A DNA stretch of 64,000 nucleotides, taken from the NCBI GenBank assembly GCA_964480515.1, contig CAYZOT010000001.1, positions 215,288-279,287 of the forward strand, read 5' to 3'. The notes under the pieces are model-generated. The model had not been told where the DNA came from. It ran no database searches and saw nothing but the letters and a program-made list of their open reading frames with translations. This DNA is from an uncultured Gemmatimonadota bacterium (GTDB lineage: Bacteria > Gemmatimonadota > Gemmatimonadetes > Palauibacterales > Palauibacteraceae). Made by a program: the position numbers and the translations under genes. This document shows, piece by piece, positions 47,376 to 56,155 of the stretch (positions are counted from its first letter, which is position 1; the number at the start of each line of letters is the position of its first letter).

Positions 47376-48920
47376 ATGACACAATCGATCATGCGCGATG
47401 TTATCGTGATCGGCGGAGGACCCGGTGGAACTGCCGTCGCGACCTTGCTCACATCGCAAGGTCACGACGTGGCACTCCTAACACGCCCGACTCCCACGGT
47501 GGCGTGGCTCGCTGAATCGATTCCCGCGTCGGCCCGTAAACTCCTGATACAGGTGGGAGCGCTAGAGGCCGTGGAAGCGGCGCGATTCATCCCTAACGAG
47601 GGGAATATGGTCTGGTGGGCGGGAGGTCCAGAACGATTGGAACAATTTCCGCGAGGTCAAAGTGGTTTTCATGTGGACCGTGGTGGACTTGAAGGCGCTC
47701 TCCTAGACCTAGCTAATAAAGTTGGAACATTCGTTTGTTCCGACGCACCGGTTCGGAGTGTCACGAAAGAACCCGAGGGGTGGCACGTGGAGGCCGGCAC
47801 ATCAACTCATCGTGCACGGTGGGTACTGGACGCATCCGGTCGGAGTGGGGTAGTCGCCCGCCACGATATGCGGATCCGCGAACGTGATACAACTACGCTT
47901 GCCCTCGTAGGACAATGGGAGGATACGGCTCCGGATGCCGAAGACCCCTCATTGACTCTCGTGGAAAGCTATAAAGACGGTTGGGCCTGGTCTGTTCCCA
48001 CTTCTGAGACTACTCGATGCGTAACGGTCATGGTTGACCCGCGCCGGACTGAGATGCGTCGGGAGCTAGGGCTTGACGGGATGTTACGGTCTGAACTCGC
48101 AAAGGCTCATCAACTTTCTGACCGACTAAGTAGAGGTCGGGTGATTGGGTCAACACGCGCGTGTGCAGCATCGGTATACGGAGCGAGCAAGTTCGGGCAA
48201 CCTGGCTTACTACTCGTAGGCGATGCAGGATCTGCCATCGATCCTCTCTCGTCGTACGGCGTAAAAAAAGCGCTATCGTCAGCGTGGTTAGCCGCTGTGG
48301 TTGTGCATACGGCGCTCAGTGATGAAACGATGGCAAACACGGCAATCGATTTCTTCGATGCGCGCGAGAAGGAGGTATACGAAACATACCGTGCGCGTTC
48401 AGTTCCGTTTCTGGAAGAGGCCCTGGACGCTCACGGACACGCATTCTGGGAAGCGCGTGTCATAGCAGCACGAGCGGCAAGCGGAACCGAATCCAAACAC
48501 GTGCACGATGGGACCATCGACGACCCCTATGATCGTGCGAACGCCGAGCGAGAGGCAGAGAAGTTCGTGGGAGATCCAGTGGTCCGCACCGTTTACGAGG
48601 AAATTCGCACGCGGCCTAATATCGCCTTGCAGCCGGGTCCAACTCTCGGGATCACAACCAAACCTGCTGTAGTTGGCAACCAGATCGCCCTGGAACCACA
48701 CCTCACGTCAAAGACATTACCTCAGGGCACGCGTTTCATACGTAACGTAGATTTGCGCCGTCTCGTCGAATTGGCACCCCACCAAACCCAGGTGCCGGAC
48801 TTCTTCTCCGCATATAACGCAGCAGGCACTCCTGCGGATCTGGCCGACTTTTTGGCTGCACTTGCAGCAACTGTCGGGGCCGGATTTCTCAAGCTAGATG
48901 AGGCACCAAATGAAAACTGA
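47376..48920 (+). CDS. qhpG: FAD-dependent monooxygenase for CTQ biogenesis (QhpG)
   Basis: GGGPGG Rossmann motif, DASGR, GWAW..P, GDA...DPLS..G; C-terminal extension; directly upstream of qhpA. Confidence 0.85.
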   Translation: MTQSIMRDVIVIGGGPGGTAVATLLTSQGHDVALLTRPTPTVAWLAESIPASARKLLIQVGALEAVEAARFIPNEGNMVWWAGGPERLEQFPRGQSGFHVDRGGLEGALLDLANKVGTFVCSDAPVRSVTKEPEGWHVEAGTSTHRARWVLDASGRSGVVARHDMRIRERDTTTLALVGQWEDTAPDAEDPSLTLVESYKDGWAWSVPTSETTRCVTVMVDPRRTEMRRELGLDGMLRSELAKAHQLSDRLSRGRVIGSTRACAASVYGASKFGQPGLLLVGDAGSAIDPLSSYGVKKALSSAWLAAVVVHTALSDETMANTAIDFFDAREKEVYETYRARSVPFLEEALDAHGHAFWEARVIAARAASGTESKHVHDGTIDDPYDRANAEREAEKFVGDPVVRTVYEEIRTRPNIALQPGPTLGITTKPAVVGNQIALEPHLTSKTLPQGTRFIRNVDLRRLVELAPHQTQVPDFFSAYNAAGTPADLADFLAALAATVGAGFLKLDEAPNEN

Positions 48921-48986
48921 TGCCTCCAAAGACTGGCGCTCAGGCGAACGCGTTCGCACCATAAGTCGATCAAGAATGGAGAATCG

Positions 48987-50732
48987 ATGACACAACGTGT
49001 CCGCTTTGCTAGCCTAGCCATCGTTTCGGCTCTTGGCATCACTGTGCTCGCGGCTTCACGACTGGAACCACCGGTTCCGGGCATGACCTTCGCGAATGAA
49101 CACGGCCCTTCATCCTTTGGAGTAGAGGATGAAGGGTATCCGATCGACAATGAGACGGTCATCGCCCAGTGCGAACGGTGTCATGAACAAGACGAACAGG
49201 GACGGATGAGCCGAATATCCTTTGAGCGGAAAACGCCCGAAGGTTGGCAAACCTCGATCCGACGTATGGTCGCCCTCAATAACGTGCGGTTGGAGCCTGA
49301 AGAAGCCCGCGAAGTCGTGCGCTATCTATCCAACCGACAAGGTTTAGCGCCTGAAGAGCTAGAACCTGGGCGATTCGAGGTCGAACGACGCATCGATGAT
49401 TATGACTATGAGGGTGATGATGACGTCGAATTTACGTGCATACAGTGCCATAGCATGGGGCGTGTGATCACCCAGCGAAGGACTCGAGAAGAATGGGCGC
49501 TCCTGCTCGCCACCCACCGTGGCTTGTATCCACTGGCCGACCGCCAAGGTTTTCTTAGTCGTGATCGAGGTGACGACGATGACAGCCGACAGCCTATGGA
49601 TATTGCTATCGATCACCTATCAGAGGCGTTCCCACTCGAAACTCCGGAATGGTCTTCTTGGTCAGCATCGATGCGGCCACCACGTCTCGCTGGCACATGG
49701 GCCCTAGCAGGCTTCGAATCAGGAAAAGGACGTGTATTCGGTACACTCGAGATTGTAGCGGGCAACACCCCAGATGAGTTCACCACCTCATCTGAATATA
49801 CATATGCGGAATCCGGCGAGTCTATTCGTAGTACGGGACAAGCAGTCATCTACACGGGTTATCAATGGAGAGGCCGATCGAATCGCGGCGACGATGGTGA
49901 ACTCCGCGAGGTAATGATGGTCGATCGTGAGTGGCAGGACATGGACGGGCGCTGGTTCACAGGAGCGTACGACGAGTTCGGTATCGATGTGGAACTGAGA
50001 CGCACGAGAGGCGAAGCAGTTTTGACAGGAGTCCACCCACGTGCTTTGCGGGCAGGGGCCGGAGCAACGGAGGTCCGGCTCTATGGCGCAAATCTTCCGA
50101 CCGACGCGAGTCCGACCGCCTTCGATTTCGGACCAGGCGTCAGGGTCGAGTCAGTGACTGCAGCAAACCCTAGCATGATCGCACTTCGCGCATACGTAGA
50201 AGATACTGCCATGATCGGTGGACGTGACCTTTTTCTCGCAGGTGCAAACCTGACCGACGCAGTGCGAATTCACGACGGCGTCGACCGCATTGAGGTCTCA
50301 CCTGACTGGGGCATGGCCCGTGTGGGGGGATCGACAAACTTTCCTAAAGGCTATCAGGCTTTTGACGCGATCGGATGGGACAACGGACCAGACGGGCAAG
50401 CGAATACCCTGGATGACCTTGACCTCGGACGCATCACCGCCACTTGGAGTATGGAAGAGTATACGGCCACTTTCGACGATGATGACATTGCCTATGTCGG
50501 CGAATTAGGACCCGATGGAATCTTCACACCGGCTGAAGACGGTCCTAACTTGAATCGGAAGGGGAGCCAAAATAATGTGGGCGATGTCTGGATTGTGGCC
50601 ACGCACGCAGGACCGGAAGCCATGGCCAATAACCCACTTCAAGCACGCGCGCACCTCATTGTAACTGTTCCGCTATACCTTAAGTTTGATCCATGGCAAA
50701 GCGGATTAATGCCTGGAAGACTAGTACCGTGA
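48987..50732 (+). CDS. qhpA: Quinohemoprotein amine dehydrogenase alpha subunit (diheme cytochrome c)
   Basis: Signal peptide; CERCH and CIQCH heme motifs; SRIS..RKTPEGW...I.RM; YTGY.WR; F.P...GPN..R....NN.G; LIVTV. Confidence 0.95.
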   Translation: MTQRVRFASLAIVSALGITVLAASRLEPPVPGMTFANEHGPSSFGVEDEGYPIDNETVIAQCERCHEQDEQGRMSRISFERKTPEGWQTSIRRMVALNNVRLEPEEAREVVRYLSNRQGLAPEELEPGRFEVERRIDDYDYEGDDDVEFTCIQCHSMGRVITQRRTREEWALLLATHRGLYPLADRQGFLSRDRGDDDDSRQPMDIAIDHLSEAFPLETPEWSSWSASMRPPRLAGTWALAGFESGKGRVFGTLEIVAGNTPDEFTTSSEYTYAESGESIRSTGQAVIYTGYQWRGRSNRGDDGELREVMMVDREWQDMDGRWFTGAYDEFGIDVELRRTRGEAVLTGVHPRALRAGAGATEVRLYGANLPTDASPTAFDFGPGVRVESVTAANPSMIALRAYVEDTAMIGGRDLFLAGANLTDAVRIHDGVDRIEVSPDWGMARVGGSTNFPKGYQAFDAIGWDNGPDGQANTLDDLDLGRITATWSMEEYTATFDDDDIAYVGELGPDGIFTPAEDGPNLNRKGSQNNVGDVWIVATHAGPEAMANNPLQARAHLIVTVPLYLKFDPWQSGLMPGRLVP

Positions 50733-52156
50733 CCCAACTCGCACTTCGTGAATTCCACGTCTTCGATGCGGCAGGCGGGCGTTTTCTGTACCTGGTCCCA
50801 TCAGCGGGGATCTTCCAGATCGACGAGCCTTCGAGTGCGATCGTGGATTTACTGGACCGCGGACCATGCGCCCCGGAGAAGATCGTTCACGACCTGTCTG
50901 AACAGTATCCCGAGGACCGGTTACGGAACGGCTTACTCGAACTACAACAGATCCGAGCAATCGGCGAAGCAGGAGCCCCTCAGGAGCAGGTTGTTAACGA
51001 CCTGCCCCCGGATGGTTTCCCGCTAACGACGATGGTCCTCAATGTGACCAACAAGTGTAACCTCGCATGCACGTACTGTTACGAGTATGGCGAGGACAAG
51101 ATCGTCGACACCACCTGCAGTGATCAACCCAAGTTTATGGCCGACGATACGGCACAAGAGGGTGTCGAACTCCTGCTTAAGGAGTCAGGTCCACTCGAAG
51201 TTGCACACCTCACTTTCTTTGGTGGCGAGACTCTCCTGAATTTCCCAGTCCTCCAGGATACGGTTGCCTACGGGCGACAACGCGCTGAAGAGTTGGGGAA
51301 GAAGATCGAGTTCAGCCTCACGACAAATGCAACACTGCTGCGGCCAGATATCATCGAATGGCTGGCTGAAAATGAGATTGGGGTTACGGTATCGATTGAT
51401 GGACCCAAGGAAATGCAGGACCGAATGCGAGTGTTCCATAGCGGCAAGGGGTCCTACGAGACGGTCCAACCAAAGATCAAGGAACTCTTGAAACGGCATA
51501 AAACCCGGCCTATTGGAGCCCGGGTCACCCTCACGAGAGAAAATCTCGATATCCACAGAATATATGAACATTTAACGGGTGAAATGGGGTTCTGGGAGGT
51601 CGGTTTCGCACCCGTCACCACAGCTTCCGGACGAGACTACGAAATTGAGGATGAGGGATATGAGCGCATGCTACAGCAATTCGATGAATTGGCACACGAC
51701 TGGCTGGAGCATGCGGTTCAAAACAAGCACCATGGGTTTTCTAACGTCAGGGACACGTTAGAGGAAATTCATAAAGGTGTGAGCAAAGCTTATCCGTGTG
51801 GCGCTGGGCTTGGGCTCATGGGCGTTTCAACGGGTGGAGATGTAGCACTTTGCCACCGTTTCGCTGCATCGGATGATCACAATTTCGGGACTACGAAAGA
51901 CGGGATCGATCGTGATCGTCAGCGACAATTCCTCGAAGACCACCACGTGAAGCATAAGACGGACTGTCATACTTGTTGGGCCAGACCGATATGTGCTGGT
52001 GGATGCTATCATGAGGCACATACCCGGTTCGGGGAGACGACTGCACCCAACCTCCACTTTTGTAACTGGGTGCGAACTTGGACACACACGTGCTTAGAAG
52101 TGTACGGAGAACTATCGGCACGGAATCCAGACTATCTTACACGTTTCGACCATTGA
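50729..52156 (+). CDS. qhpD: Radical SAM/SPASM thioether-forming maturase (QhpD/PeaB)
   Basis: CNLACTYC; FFGGETL; SPASM PCGAG..CHRF..CHTCWAR..CAGGCYHE..C; N-terminal RRE-like region; GTG overlapping the qhpA TGA. Confidence 0.95.
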   Translation: MTQLALREFHVFDAAGGRFLYLVPSAGIFQIDEPSSAIVDLLDRGPCAPEKIVHDLSEQYPEDRLRNGLLELQQIRAIGEAGAPQEQVVNDLPPDGFPLTTMVLNVTNKCNLACTYCYEYGEDKIVDTTCSDQPKFMADDTAQEGVELLLKESGPLEVAHLTFFGGETLLNFPVLQDTVAYGRQRAEELGKKIEFSLTTNATLLRPDIIEWLAENEIGVTVSIDGPKEMQDRMRVFHSGKGSYETVQPKIKELLKRHKTRPIGARVTLTRENLDIHRIYEHLTGEMGFWEVGFAPVTTASGRDYEIEDEGYERMLQQFDELAHDWLEHAVQNKHHGFSNVRDTLEEIHKGVSKAYPCGAGLGLMGVSTGGDVALCHRFAASDDHNFGTTKDGIDRDRQRQFLEDHHVKHKTDCHTCWARPICAGGCYHEAHTRFGETTAPNLHFCNWVRTWTHTCLEVYGELSARNPDYLTRFDH

Positions 52157-52208
52157 CGATGGTATCGGGCAAGTTTCGGAAGATTTTCAATAGTGAGGGA
52201 GAAAAGCC

Positions 52209-52544
52209 GTGAAGCACTTGAAACCGATTAACCAGAAAGCCGGCCGCATCGAGGCACAAATTGTTCGCGAACAACTCGATGTAGTGGGACTTGAGAGCGC
52301 TCCGCCAACAGGGCCACACATTCCCATAGGCTGCTCACTGGTGTTCGCTCCCGGCTGGGAGGTAGACTCTAGTGGCGGTACCGCAGGTCTATGCCAACCC
52401 GTGGAGCGTGACCTGTTCGATTGTCACTTGGCCTGCTTCTGGCCGGCTCATGTCCCGGACCAACTCAACCATGCACAGGACTGGACCGGAAGATGCGCAG
52501 CAGCCCAGAAAGACTGGCGCAAACTCGACCTAGTATTCCCGTGA
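52209..52544 (+). CDS. qhpC: Quinohemoprotein amine dehydrogenase gamma subunit precursor (CTQ peptide)
   Basis: Leader MKHLKPIN.KA; GC....PGWEVD, LCQP.E.DL..C...C.WPA.VPD, DWRKL..VFP. Confidence 0.96.
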   Translation: MKHLKPINQKAGRIEAQIVREQLDVVGLESAPPTGPHIPIGCSLVFAPGWEVDSSGGTAGLCQPVERDLFDCHLACFWPAHVPDQLNHAQDWTGRCAAAQKDWRKLDLVFP

Positions 52545-53662
52545 TTCGATACCGCTTCTCCCCAATACTCCTTCTCACAGGTTTCCTTGTAATCAGCCTG
52601 CCGGTGTCGGTATCCGCACAAGACAACGGGGATAACGCCTATTGGTACATGGGTAACTACGGGAACGAGGTTATCGTTTGGGATGAAGCTACCGAACAGA
52701 TCGTGGACTACATTCCAGTTAAGCGCGCGATCGCCTTGGGTCTCACAGTCTCAAGAGACCATTCCCGCCTTTTCGTGGTAGATCCCTTTCGCGAGACAAT
52801 TGAAATTGTCGACATAGGTACAAAGAAATCAGTCGGTGAGTTTACACTATCAAGAGGTCGTACTAGGACTTGGATCAGTTCGTTTGAGGTGCACCCAAGC
52901 TTGGAATGGGCTGCGATACTGGTGCAGAGCCGGACCAAGCTCGTCGACCGGTACGAAATCTCTGATCCGACCATCCTGAAATACGACCTGACCACCTATG
53001 CGGTTACGGATACCATTCCGTGGCCGGACGATGAATCCGAAACTGCTCGCGGATCTTGGCGCTTGAACTCGCCTAATTTCCGGTTCTCTCCGGACGGCGA
53101 ACTCCTCTACATGTTCACCGATGACTTGATTGCACTTAACTCAGCCGATTTCAGTGAAGTCGATCGCTGGGAAATCTCCGAACCGTTCGAACCCGGGCTA
53201 GGTGAGATGTCTCTTCCTTTCGGCGAAAGTCCGTATCAGGAGGAAGAAGGCATCTACACGGGGCTCTTCCGAATGACGGACCCCGTCCAAAACCGTCGCC
53301 TTATGGGGATCGCTACGGTTGATATGGCGAGGAAGGAAGTGGATTTCCAACCGATCGGGCCGTCGGAATCGGTCACCTTCCGCATCTCACCAGATGGAAC
53401 CAAGGGATATGGACTAAAATCGCAAATCGGACATTACGAAATGTGGAAGTTCGATCTCACTGCCCCACGTGTTTCGGATCGGATCACGTTCGAGGGACGA
53501 CCTCGGATGGCCCTGATGCCAAGTGCTGACGGAACGCGGATCTTCATCTATAACGCCGGGAATACGATCGACGTATACGATGAGGCCACGTTCGAATACC
53601 TCCGAACCATTGACTTAGGCGCTGACATGACGGGAGTGGTCGTAGTCCCCGACCCAGAGTGA
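52541..53662 (+). CDS. qhpB: Quinohemoprotein amine dehydrogenase beta subunit (beta-propeller)
   Basis: GTG overlapping the qhpC stop; signal peptide ending VSA-QD; SPDG propeller repeats; C-terminal GADM; located after qhpC. Confidence 0.85.
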   Translation: MIRYRFSPILLLTGFLVISLPVSVSAQDNGDNAYWYMGNYGNEVIVWDEATEQIVDYIPVKRAIALGLTVSRDHSRLFVVDPFRETIEIVDIGTKKSVGEFTLSRGRTRTWISSFEVHPSLEWAAILVQSRTKLVDRYEISDPTILKYDLTTYAVTDTIPWPDDESETARGSWRLNSPNFRFSPDGELLYMFTDDLIALNSADFSEVDRWEISEPFEPGLGEMSLPFGESPYQEEEGIYTGLFRMTDPVQNRRLMGIATVDMARKEVDFQPIGPSESVTFRISPDGTKGYGLKSQIGHYEMWKFDLTAPRVSDRITFEGRPRMALMPSADGTRIFIYNAGNTIDVYDEATFEYLRTIDLGADMTGVVVVPDPE

Positions 53663-53669
53663 TTCACGG

Positions 53670-55397
53670 GTGATTGTCGACCCACACTTTCGACGGGCCC
53701 TCGCGTACGTTCGACCCTATACGTGGGCACTGCTGCCTGTGGTCTTGATGTCGCTTGGAGGGACTGGACTCTCACTCGTACTCCCCTACCTGTCCAAAGT
53801 ACTTATTGATGATGGAATTCTTAGTCAGAACTTTCCTGCTCTAGTCCGGACCATCGCCCTGTTCTTGGGCGTCACGATCTTGAGCTTCGGCGTGAATGTA
53901 GCCAGTGGGATGAGATACACGCGGGTGTCCGCTGACATTCTCTTCGACATGAGATTAGCGCTGTATCGGCACTTACAGCGCTTGTCCCCGCGATTTTATG
54001 CAACGAGGCCACTTGGCGATGTCGTGTCACGCATTAACAACGACATCGGTGAAATTCAGCGTGTAACAGCCGACACGGCACTAGGTTGGTTGGGTAACGT
54101 CCTGTTTCTTATCGGAACGGTGGCGATGCTGATCTGGCTGGACGTCCGGTTATTTCTGGTCGGATTAATCTCGCTTCCCCCAAGCCTTTGGGCTCTCCTT
54201 AAATACCGACAGCAGCTCGAAACACGCGTTACCCAACTACGTGAGCGAAGCGCAAATATTGGAAGTTTCCTGATTGAAACGCTTCAGGGAATGCGGGTCG
54301 TCGTTGCTTCGAATGCTCAAGAACGCGAGACAACACGTTTTCGGGGCCACAACGATCGATTTGTCCAGTCTCTGCTATCGATGCGTTGGTTTACGTACTT
54401 GGCCGGTGGGCTTCCAGGGTTACTACTACAGGTGGGTACCGCAGCGGTGTTCCTTTACGGTGGATATCGCGTAATTACAGGCGAAACAACGCTCGGCACC
54501 TTTGTCGCCGTCATGGCCTATCAAATGCGACTCCTAGTGCCCGTTCAGGCCCTGATGGGACTGTATGCAAACCTTGCTAGTGCACGCGCGTCGCTTGTCC
54601 GTGTCCACGAAATACTCGATACAGAACCGGATGTGAAGGAGAATGACCACCCCACCCGATTGCACGAAGTGTCGGGCCAACTTGCATTCGATCGAGTGCG
54701 GTTCGGGTTTGGTCGAGGCTATACCGTGCTCGATTCCGTCAGCTTTGAGATTCCTGCCGGCCAGGTCATCGCACTCGTCGGGGCGAGTGGAAGTGGGAAG
54801 TCGACCGTTGCGGACCTGCTTATCCGACAGCTTGACCCTGAAGAAGGACGGGTCCTATTGGATGGGTACGACTTACGGGACTTGGCACTCGAAGATGTCC
54901 GTCGGAATATTGCCGTGGTCGACCAGAATCCGTTCATCTTCCACTCTTCAATGGCTGAAAACATTCGTTACGCACGCCCTGACGCAACTGATCAAGAGGT
55001 GGCACTATCAGCTGAAGCCGCCGCCTTAAGCGATCTGATCGCGTCGCTACCGGATGGACTCGACACAATCGTGGGTGAGCATGGTCAGCAGTTATCTGTA
55101 GGTGAACGACAGCGACTAGCTGTGGCAAGAGCTTTTCTCACCCGTCCAGCAATCCTGATCCTTGATGAAGCAACAGGAGCACTTGATCCGGTTTCCGAGA
55201 AACAGGTGCTCGCGGGACACAATGCTCTGATGTCTGGTCGCACAACGGTAATCATCACTCACCGTTCCGCACTCGCCAAACAAGCAGATCGCATCATTGT
55301 GATTCGCGATGGACATATCGCCGAAGACGGACCAGCTACTGAACTTGCAACCCGTGAAGGTCCCTTCCAAGCGTTATTCGCCACTGAAGGCATGTGA
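53670..55397 (+). CDS. qhpF: ABC exporter, fused permease-ATPase (QhpF)
   Basis: 6-TM domain + GASGSGKST, LSVGERQR, ILDEAT; inside the qhp operon. Confidence 0.88.
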   Translation: MIVDPHFRRALAYVRPYTWALLPVVLMSLGGTGLSLVLPYLSKVLIDDGILSQNFPALVRTIALFLGVTILSFGVNVASGMRYTRVSADILFDMRLALYRHLQRLSPRFYATRPLGDVVSRINNDIGEIQRVTADTALGWLGNVLFLIGTVAMLIWLDVRLFLVGLISLPPSLWALLKYRQQLETRVTQLRERSANIGSFLIETLQGMRVVVASNAQERETTRFRGHNDRFVQSLLSMRWFTYLAGGLPGLLLQVGTAAVFLYGGYRVITGETTLGTFVAVMAYQMRLLVPVQALMGLYANLASARASLVRVHEILDTEPDVKENDHPTRLHEVSGQLAFDRVRFGFGRGYTVLDSVSFEIPAGQVIALVGASGSGKSTVADLLIRQLDPEEGRVLLDGYDLRDLALEDVRRNIAVVDQNPFIFHSSMAENIRYARPDATDQEVALSAEAAALSDLIASLPDGLDTIVGEHGQQLSVGERQRLAVARAFLTRPAILILDEATGALDPVSEKQVLAGHNALMSGRTTVIITHRSALAKQADRIIVIRDGHIAEDGPATELATREGPFQALFATEGM

Positions 55398-56155
55398 TTG
55401 GACTTTTGAAGATCGAATCGACCGAGGCGCGGAACGGAGAGCTGCCCAGATTAGTCCGATGCGGAGAACCACCGCTCGGAGGTCGTACGGGACGTGGAAT
55501 TTCCATCGCAGTTATTGATAGTGGATACCACCCCGGCCACCCACATATAGAGCGGATTGCGGGTGGTGTTGAGTTCAATTCCGCTGGTGAACCCAGCAAT
55601 GACCTCGTGGACCGGTTAGGGCACGGGACGGCGGTCACCGCGGCAATACAAGAGAAAGCACCGGAGGCCGATATCCACGTCGTGCGGGTTTTTCACGATA
55701 TGCTTGCAATCAGTTCACGGACGCTTGCCACTGCGATTGATTGGGCAAGCGAATCAGGCTGTCGGATTGCGAATTTGAGCCTGGGGACCCCTCACGAATT
55801 TCGGGTAGAGGACTTAGCCCCGGCTGTAGAACGCGCCGTAGAACGAGGGACAATTATTGTGTCTGCGTACGAACTCGAAAAAGAGCGTTGGTTCCCAGGA
55901 AGCTTATCGGGTGCGTTGGGGGTGATACTCGATTGGGATTGCCCAAGAGATGCTGTCAGGATCGAAACTCGTTCGGACCGGTCGATCGTAGCTGCTTCAG
56001 GTTATCCCCGCCCAATACCGGGTGTCCCGCCTGAGCGTAATTTGAAAGGGATCAGCTTTGCCGTGGCTAATACATCCGGGATGCTCGCGCTCGCGTTAGA
56101 AGATCGCCCTGACGTACGGACATCGGATGCTTCTATCGAGGCACTATCACCATAA
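55394..56155 (+). CDS. qhpE: Subtilisin-like leader peptidase (QhpE)
   Basis: IDSG / GHGT / GISFA catalytic triad, NLSLG, no signal peptide, GTGA overlap with qhpF. Confidence 0.88.
   Translation: MIGLLKIESTEARNGELPRLVRCGEPPLGGRTGRGISIAVIDSGYHPGHPHIERIAGGVEFNSAGEPSNDLVDRLGHGTAVTAAIQEKAPEADIHVVRVFHDMLAISSRTLATAIDWASESGCRIANLSLGTPHEFRVEDLAPAVERAVERGTIIVSAYELEKERWFPGSLSGALGVILDWDCPRDAVRIETRSDRSIVAASGYPRPIPGVPPERNLKGISFAVANTSGMLALALEDRPDVRTSDASIEALSP

Follow-up and report, generated by a model that had tools for sequence, protein, structure and literature searches.

Gene content of the operon

A complete quinohemoprotein amine dehydrogenase (QHNDH) operon, recognised by profile matches and gene order, lies on the forward strand at positions 47376-56155 of the window, that is, the whole 64,000-nucleotide stretch of DNA that was analysed. 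Its genes, all in forward orientation, are qhpG, encoding the flavin monooxygenase for CTQ formation (47376..48920; NF049967, 224.4 bits, slightly below the cut-off of 240), qhpA, the dihaem alpha subunit (48987..50732; TIGR03908, 457.5 bits, cut-off 274), qhpD, the radical SAM/SPASM thioether-forming maturase (50693..52156; PF04055 and TIGR03906, the latter with 554.3 bits, cut-off 453), qhpC, the precursor of the gamma subunit (52209..52544; 111 residues from a GTG start; PF08992 and NF037958), qhpB, the beta subunit (52541..53662; 373 residues from GTG 52541; TIGR03907, 43.8 bits, cut-off 223), a gene for a qhpF-like ABC exporter (53670..55397; PF00664 and PF00005) and qhpE, a subtilisin-like leader peptidase (55394..56155; PF00082 and NF049966, the latter with 157.8 bits, slightly below the cut-off of 165).

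Among the neighbours of qhpC, QhpA and QhpD score above the cut-offs of their models, QhpG and QhpE just below and QhpB far below; because of this low TIGR03907 score, the name qhpB was given partly by operon position. QhpB had no Pfam match, and an alternative start of its gene is ATG 52493. The protein is strongly divergent from the curated beta model, while QhpA, QhpC and QhpD score well above their cut-offs, and the beta subunit of enzymes with a five-Cys gamma subunit may be substantially unlike the solved ones. The exporter gene at 53670..55397 was named from the operon context, as its product had no match to a QhpF-specific model.

Several genes overlap, namely qhpA and qhpD by 40 bases (50693-50732) and the exporter gene and qhpE by 4 bases (55394-55397), and the stop of qhpC and the start of qhpB share the bases GTGA (52541-52544); such tight overlaps suggest translational coupling. 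Among the best 80 of 578 confirmed genome loci, the nearest belongs to an uncultured Gemmatimonadetes MAG (97% identity), followed by loci of Candidatus Palauibacter (86-89% identity).

The gamma subunit and its canonical cross-link sites

The open reading frame at 52209..52544 translates as the initial annotation had described, and its product is assigned to the QhpC family by PF08992 (E = 2.7e-33, 114.2 bits, cut-off 25) and NF037958 (QH_gamma, 126.7 bits, cut-off 50). It aligns without gaps to the gamma chains 1jju_C and 1jmx_G, residues 40-111 of the query corresponding to residues 5-76 of the chains (E = 1.1e-20 and 3.1e-22, respectively). Residues 1-35 (52209..52313) form a putative leader peptide, whose boundary was taken from the mature-chain numbering of the solved structures and would place the cleavage site after residue 35. 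The leader motif KHLKxINxKA is kept in homologs, with N8, K10 and A11 nearly invariant.

The translated protein has Cys at positions 42, 62, 72, 76 and 96. Conservation was assessed in those homolog rows that passed a filter on the seven canonical residues only (250 of 383), from which fragments and frame-shifted rows had been dropped. Translation and alignment to the solved chains bear out the earlier statement that the canonical pairs are intact, and the Paracoccus equivalents C7, E16, C27, D33, C37, C41, W43 and D49 were correctly given (offset 35). The thioether pairs are C42...E51 (Cys-x8-Glu, equivalent to C7-E16; 52332..52361; spacer of 8 in 249 of 250 rows), C62...D68 (Cys-x5-Asp, equivalent to C27-D33; 52392..52412; spacer of 5 in 249 of 250 rows) and C76...D84 (Cys-x7-Asp, equivalent to C41-D49; 52434..52460; spacer of 7 in all 250 rows), and the CTQ cofactor pair, placed by alignment to the solved chains, is C72...W78 (equivalent to C37-W43; 52422..52442). 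In the available part of PMC13692751, QhpD is described as making three links, one Cys-Glu and two Cys-Asp, and the part of PMC7876137 at hand states that one iodoacetamide-reactive Cys remains for CTQ in the known QhpC. According to the latter paper, QhpG helps the cross-linking of the Ps. putida protein to go to completion. In the QhpC of the present operon, the thioether bonds and CTQ are predicted features.

Some homologs depart from this pattern. Three of them (P0180, P0263 and P0339) have Thr at position 72, the place of the CTQ Cys, and keep W78 and the three thioether pairs; they may carry a tryptophylquinone without the Cys link, represent an inactive form or contain sequence errors. 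We considered whether C96 replaces the CTQ Cys in such proteins and rejected this, since P0180 and P0263 lack C72 and keep C96, but P0339, also without C72, has Asn96. QhpC-like domains were also found at one end of long proteins (P0255, 557 residues; P0198, 600; P0145, 472; P0130, 320; P0124, 260), which may have arisen by fusion, for instance to a gene next door, or from mis-called starts; P0255 has Ser at the position of C76, and an unrelated tail of 450 residues follows.

A fifth Cys and its distribution

As the initial annotation had pointed out, an additional Cys, C96, precedes D102 (RCAAAQKDW) with the same C-x5-D spacing as in C62-D68. The segment C96-AAAQK-D102 occupies 52494..52514 (codons 52494-52496 for C96 and 52512-52514 for D102), exactly the interval assigned to it earlier, and is the candidate fourth thioether pair. 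In both solved chains, C96 aligns with Ala61 and D102 with Asp67, and the two distinct gamma sequences in the PDB thus both have Ala at position 96.

The proposal of a fourth bridge had been staked on C96 being kept in close relatives, which is the case in all of the 120 closest homologs (best 120 of 2382) and in each of 80 genome loci (the 80 top-ranking of 578 confirmed). These 80 loci span Gemmatimonadota, Longimicrobiales, Vicinamibacterales, Blastocatellia, Bryobacteraceae and Terriglobia, and all of them, their QhpD genes included, represent the Cys class. Among 150 listed representatives of clusters at 50% identity, Cys is present in 49 of the 58 that cover the C-terminal motif. A search with a profile built from seven divergent QhpC members matched at least 120 proteins, 113 of which passed the core filter; 75 of these rows have Cys96 and 38 have A, S, N or K, and the Cys96 lineages among the matches are named in their sources as Sporosarcina soli, Planococcaceae, Terriglobales and Candidatus Sericytochromatia. 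Proteobacterial-type proteins (Rhodospirillaceae-seeded search, best 120 listed) have Cys96 in 0 of 120 cases, the residue being A in 111, S in 5, V in 2, E in 1 and L in 1. All of these homolog samples are ranked lists biased toward their queries, from which no family-wide frequency can be derived.

Within the Cys96 clades, Ala and Ser do not occur at position 96, and the one exception to Cys is a Tyr (P0134). A quick tree was computed for 92 rows, namely the query and 91 rows thinned at 90% identity from the 251 rows (of 383) left by the core filter, using 71 columns with the trait column taken out; it is based on a short alignment, resolves only a minority of its forks and has no inferred root. 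In this tree, a single clade of 39 rows (SH-aLRT 94) takes in 32 of the 33 non-Cys rows, the other one is the lone Tyr inside the query's own clade, and all further clades are entirely Cys. The Cys96 label requires 7 changes on the tree versus a mean of 27 after shuffling, and 0 of 500 shuffles were as low. The initial annotation had envisaged a distinct class of gamma subunits; a five-Cys class does exist, but it is no small novelty, comprising all sampled lineages except one proteobacterial-type clade. Judged by these sequences, the five-Cys gamma subunit is the common form among the sampled lineages and the characterised four-Cys enzymes are the exception, and loss of Cys96 in the proteobacterial clade is the parsimonious reading of this rootless tree of a short alignment.

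The same data bear on the reading that Cys replaced Ala at position 96 neutrally or by chance, without any function, or that it is a sequencing artefact. An exchange of Ala for Cys is conservative, and an acid at a matching spacing is expected in 13% of cases; such an origin is contradicted by the 120 of 120 homologs and 80 of 80 loci with Cys, by its presence in many distant lineages and by the clustering on the tree, and we regard it as extremely improbable.

Potential partners of C96 other than D102

The initial annotation had found no disulfide partner for C96, and the translations agree: the only Cys of QhpA are the four at positions 62, 65, 151 and 154, all within its two CxxCH motifs, and QhpB, read from GTG 52541, has none, the two Cys of the longer open reading frame 52421-53662 being upstream of any plausible start. 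Among the relatives, QhpA has exactly four haem Cys in 62 of the 68 loci with at least 85% coverage, and QhpB has no Cys in 63 of 78 loci. On these Cys counts of QhpA and QhpB, an inter-subunit disulfide at C96 was ruled out.

Additional Cys occur in individual subunits of the relatives. The aligned part of QhpB contains one Cys in 13 of the 78 relatives (L003, L006, L008, L009, L029, L065, L067, L071, L076, L077, L079, L080 and L081), two in one (L020) and four in one (L063). Among the 68 QhpA sequences with at least 85% coverage, four have five Cys, one has six and one has seven; the loci with extra Cys in QhpA are L013, L021, L040, L052, L068, L080 and L081, and QhpA of L013 has 18 Cys at 69% coverage.

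A different covalent or ligand role of C96 would be a disulfide that joins two gamma subunits or ties one to an outside protein, a link to one of the nearby Trp (W92 at -4, W103 at +7) or the binding of a metal along with the class-specific His. In favour of such a role, C96 is unpaired and conserved, W92 and W103 are nearly invariant, and H73 is present in all 120 closest QhpC homologs (best 120 of 2382). The two Trp are, however, just as invariant among four-Cys sequences, QhpA and QhpB have no Cys to offer, and the His vary across the C96 lineages (H, Y, S, A, D or N at position 73, Q or H at 81, and H, N or S at 88), so that C96 is not accompanied by a conserved metal site. We know of no precedent in QHNDH for such a role of a Cys, and we consider it unlikely.

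H73 (52425-52427), H81 (52449-52451) and H88 (52470-52472) are a feature of the Gemmatimonadota/Acidobacteriota subfamily of QhpC. A metal site formed by these three His and C96 was rejected, the His being specific to that subfamily.

D102 and the spacing of the candidate pair

The initial annotation had proposed co-conservation of C96 and D102 as a check of the fourth bridge. The first half of this expectation holds, as C96 is conserved; the second is uninformative, because D102 is invariant irrespective of C96 and the test therefore does not discriminate. Both D102 and W103 are present in 250 of 250 core-filtered rows, whatever the residue at position 96, and D102 occurs in all 41 rows without Cys96 and in all 120 proteobacterial-type four-Cys rows. 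D102 is evidently conserved for reasons that hold in four-Cys enzymes too, and its own invariance, as read from the alignment, removes the main apparent support for a C96-D102 bond. It also fits the alternative that C96 never enters a cross-link and keeps a free thiol, being a small residue on a packed face of a C-terminal helix to which D102 stands at +6 by coincidence.

An acid is located exactly six residues after C96 in 209 of 209 C96 sequences (D in 205, E in 4). The four with Glu (P0160, P0331, P0337 and P0357) form a clade with an insertion, in which D102 is shifted to +7 and Glu occupies +6. The support that this clade lends to a fourth bridge is modest and stems from one evolutionary event; it is modest because Glu or Asp directly precedes D102 in 2-12% of the remaining rows as well. 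In the mature QhpC, 9 of 70 positions are followed by an acid at +6, and 24 of 70 by one at +6, +8 or +9. Measured against this chance level, the C96-D102 spacing by itself is weak evidence, and it is the conservation of C96 that exceeds chance.

The cross-linked Cys of QhpC have an acid at +6, +8 or +9, and the CTQ Cys has none at +6 to +9; in the alignment, an acid follows C72 at these distances in 0 of 248 rows. By this site rule, which is drawn from sequence, C96 is on the cross-linked side. A free thiol at C96 would break the rule that QhpC Cys with an acid at +6 to +9 are cross-linked.

D102 is the sole invariant acid downstream of C96 outside the known bridges. D107 was considered as partner acid and rejected: it is found in 120 of 120 close homologs (best 120 of 2382), but C96 lineages farther away have Q, N, T, K, P, E or C instead (84% D/E across the Cys class), and the solved chains have G and Q. 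Some variation in ring size is tolerated in nature, as P0241 has Cys-x8-Asp in place of C62-x5-D68. The QhpC of P0241 has seven Cys, with extra ones at positions 54 and 107 that possibly form a disulfide, and the x8 ring results from a three-residue insertion.

Local structure around C96

Residues W92, C/A96, A99, W103 and L106 form a conserved stripe in an Ala-rich segment, with the 4-3-4-3 spacing of one face of an alpha-helix, and this periodicity favours C96 as a free thiol packed on such a face. AlphaFold2 (AF2) models were poor for both the QhpC precursor (73 sequences; mean pLDDT 53.7) and its mature part (66 diverse sequences; mean pLDDT 51.5); both have a weak helix at 92-99/101 and 103-105, with pLDDT near or under 60, and the first of these stretches would also be in line with an unlinked, packed Cys. 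By our own geometry estimate, a regular helix separates residues i and i+6 by about 10 A, beyond the reach of a thioether. Pro97, which is shared by 81 of the 120 four-Cys sequences and a part of the Cys96 sequences, implies that any helix begins at or after residue 97, which would place residue 96 in the cap region. The chain in a cap region can fold back on the first turn, which qualifies the helix argument against a C96-D102 bond.

The intervening segment is alike in both classes, reading A-[SA]-A-[QE]-[KR]-D-W-R in the C96 class and [PD]-S-A-x-[RK]-D-W-R in the four-Cys class. The similarity of residues 97-101 suggests one shared backbone conformation, with Cys or without, and is a further point for the free thiol. 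So is Ala at position 96 of 111 of the 120 proteobacterial-type sequences and of both solved chains; the frequency of Ala in this class, which lacks a fourth bridge, has the pattern of a small packed residue and argues against a cross-link.

The complex of QhpA (32-581), QhpB (27-373) and mature QhpC was predicted with a score of 0.39, the best of three controls reaching 0.00. This is weak support. In the benchmark, 116 of 157 solved complexes and 2 of 215 mismatches came up to this mark, and just 18 of the 157 had a score of at most 0.60. Contact agreement was at least 9% and partner pLDDT at least 29 in these runs; contacts were not part of the output, and the score does not show the placement of C96. 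A similar complex has already been solved, and any pass of such a prediction could reflect memory.

A fourth thioether as the favoured reading

A conserved free thiol is a serious rival to a fourth thioether. It would be kept for packing or because a thiol is needed near the cofactor, for instance as a redox buffer or for a step of CTQ biogenesis. Packing alone, however, would let Cys, Ala and Ser swap within clades, but 209 rows from very distant lineages all have Cys, and Ala occurs in just one clade. Moreover, a second free thiol beside the CTQ-forming Cys of an exported protein would presumably risk mis-linking. Taking both sides together, we regard a free C96 as a real possibility that we nevertheless rather doubt.

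The fixation of C96 over deep divergence without a disulfide partner argues for a fourth thioether, and a QhpD-made bond between C96 and D102 appears to be the single best explanation of this residue, in which our confidence comes close to even without reaching it. Cross-linking at C-beta need not abolish another role of the carboxylate, by analogy with the cross-linked Asp33 of the known enzyme, which the available part of PMC7876137 discusses as the equivalent of a conserved active-site Asp.

According to this proposal, QhpD would act in the cytoplasm on the linear, leader-bearing QhpC and form the sulfur-to-methylene bonds C42-E51, C62-D68 and C76-D84. A fourth bond, between S-gamma of C96 and C-beta of D102, would produce a ring of seven residues, as in C62-D68, and C72 alone would stay free for the later Cys-Trp link of CTQ. 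The fourth bond would be made by an ordinary QhpD, because the site obeys the Cys-x5-8-Asp/Glu rule of the known sites.

The initial annotation had invoked a QhpD with extended processivity instead. This we could not support, because the protein matches TIGR03906 throughout, without an added domain: residues 20-485 of 487 align to profile positions 2-461 of 467, and the 13 Cys include CxxxCxxC at 122, 126 and 129. For a fourth bond, should there be one, a site encoded in the substrate is a simpler account than a special QhpD.

More broadly, gamma subunits with four thioethers would be widespread and, by parsimony, probably ancestral, both studied enzymes would belong to a derived proteobacterial clade in which the fourth bridge was lost, and the same ordinary QhpD would link any Cys with Asp or Glu at +6 to +9, the choice of sites being encoded in the substrate. 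We advance this wider scenario tentatively, judging its chances to be somewhat below even.

Significance

QHNDH is a textbook case of radical-SAM thioether cross-links within a genuine protein, as opposed to a peptide natural product, and to our knowledge its gamma subunit has always been described as having three bridges plus CTQ. This three-bridge description rests on one clade; the other sampled lineages carry a fifth, invariant and unpaired Cys with an acid at bridge spacing. No mention of a fifth QhpC Cys was found in the QhpC and QHNDH literature searched, which did not include the primary structure and QhpD papers, and priority may lie elsewhere.

If the fourth bridge is real, the canonical description of the gamma subunit changes, the two classes provide a natural test of how QhpD picks the Cys to be linked and spares the CTQ Cys, and enzymes that form ranthionine-type cross-links gain a further design rule. 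Should C96 remain unlinked, the conservation of a solitary thiol next to the quinone cofactor of an exported enzyme calls for an explanation of its own.

Comparison with known systems

The QhpC reported here resembles those of Paracoccus denitrificans and Pseudomonas putida (1JJU/1PBY chain C and 1JMX/1JMZ chain G) in the gapless alignment of the mature domain and in the three Cys-Asp/Glu pairs and the CTQ pair with identical spacing, and the operon has the same partners, namely QhpA, QhpD, QhpB, QhpE, QhpG and the ABC exporter. It differs from both solved gamma chains in its fifth Cys, where these have Ala61, and in the motif beside the cofactor, which is CHLAC here and CSDPC or CADPC there, as well as by the presence of H81 and H88. 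The beta subunit is highly divergent from those of the two known QHNDH (43.8 bits against the TIGR03907 cut-off of 223). The leader, of about 35 residues, is longer than that of the Ps. putida QhpC, which has 28 according to the part of PMC7876137 at hand.

QhpD of this operon is similar to the ranthipeptide-type maturases PapB, the SCIFF maturase and CteB, its next best matches being PapB and SCIFF maturases. QhpD and PapB-type maturases make thioethers between Cys sulfur and a non-alpha carbon of Asp or Glu, as described in the available part of PMC13692751. If the fourth bond exists, the enzyme encoded here would differ from the known QhpD in making four links instead of three in one 76-residue protein, with the same domain architecture.
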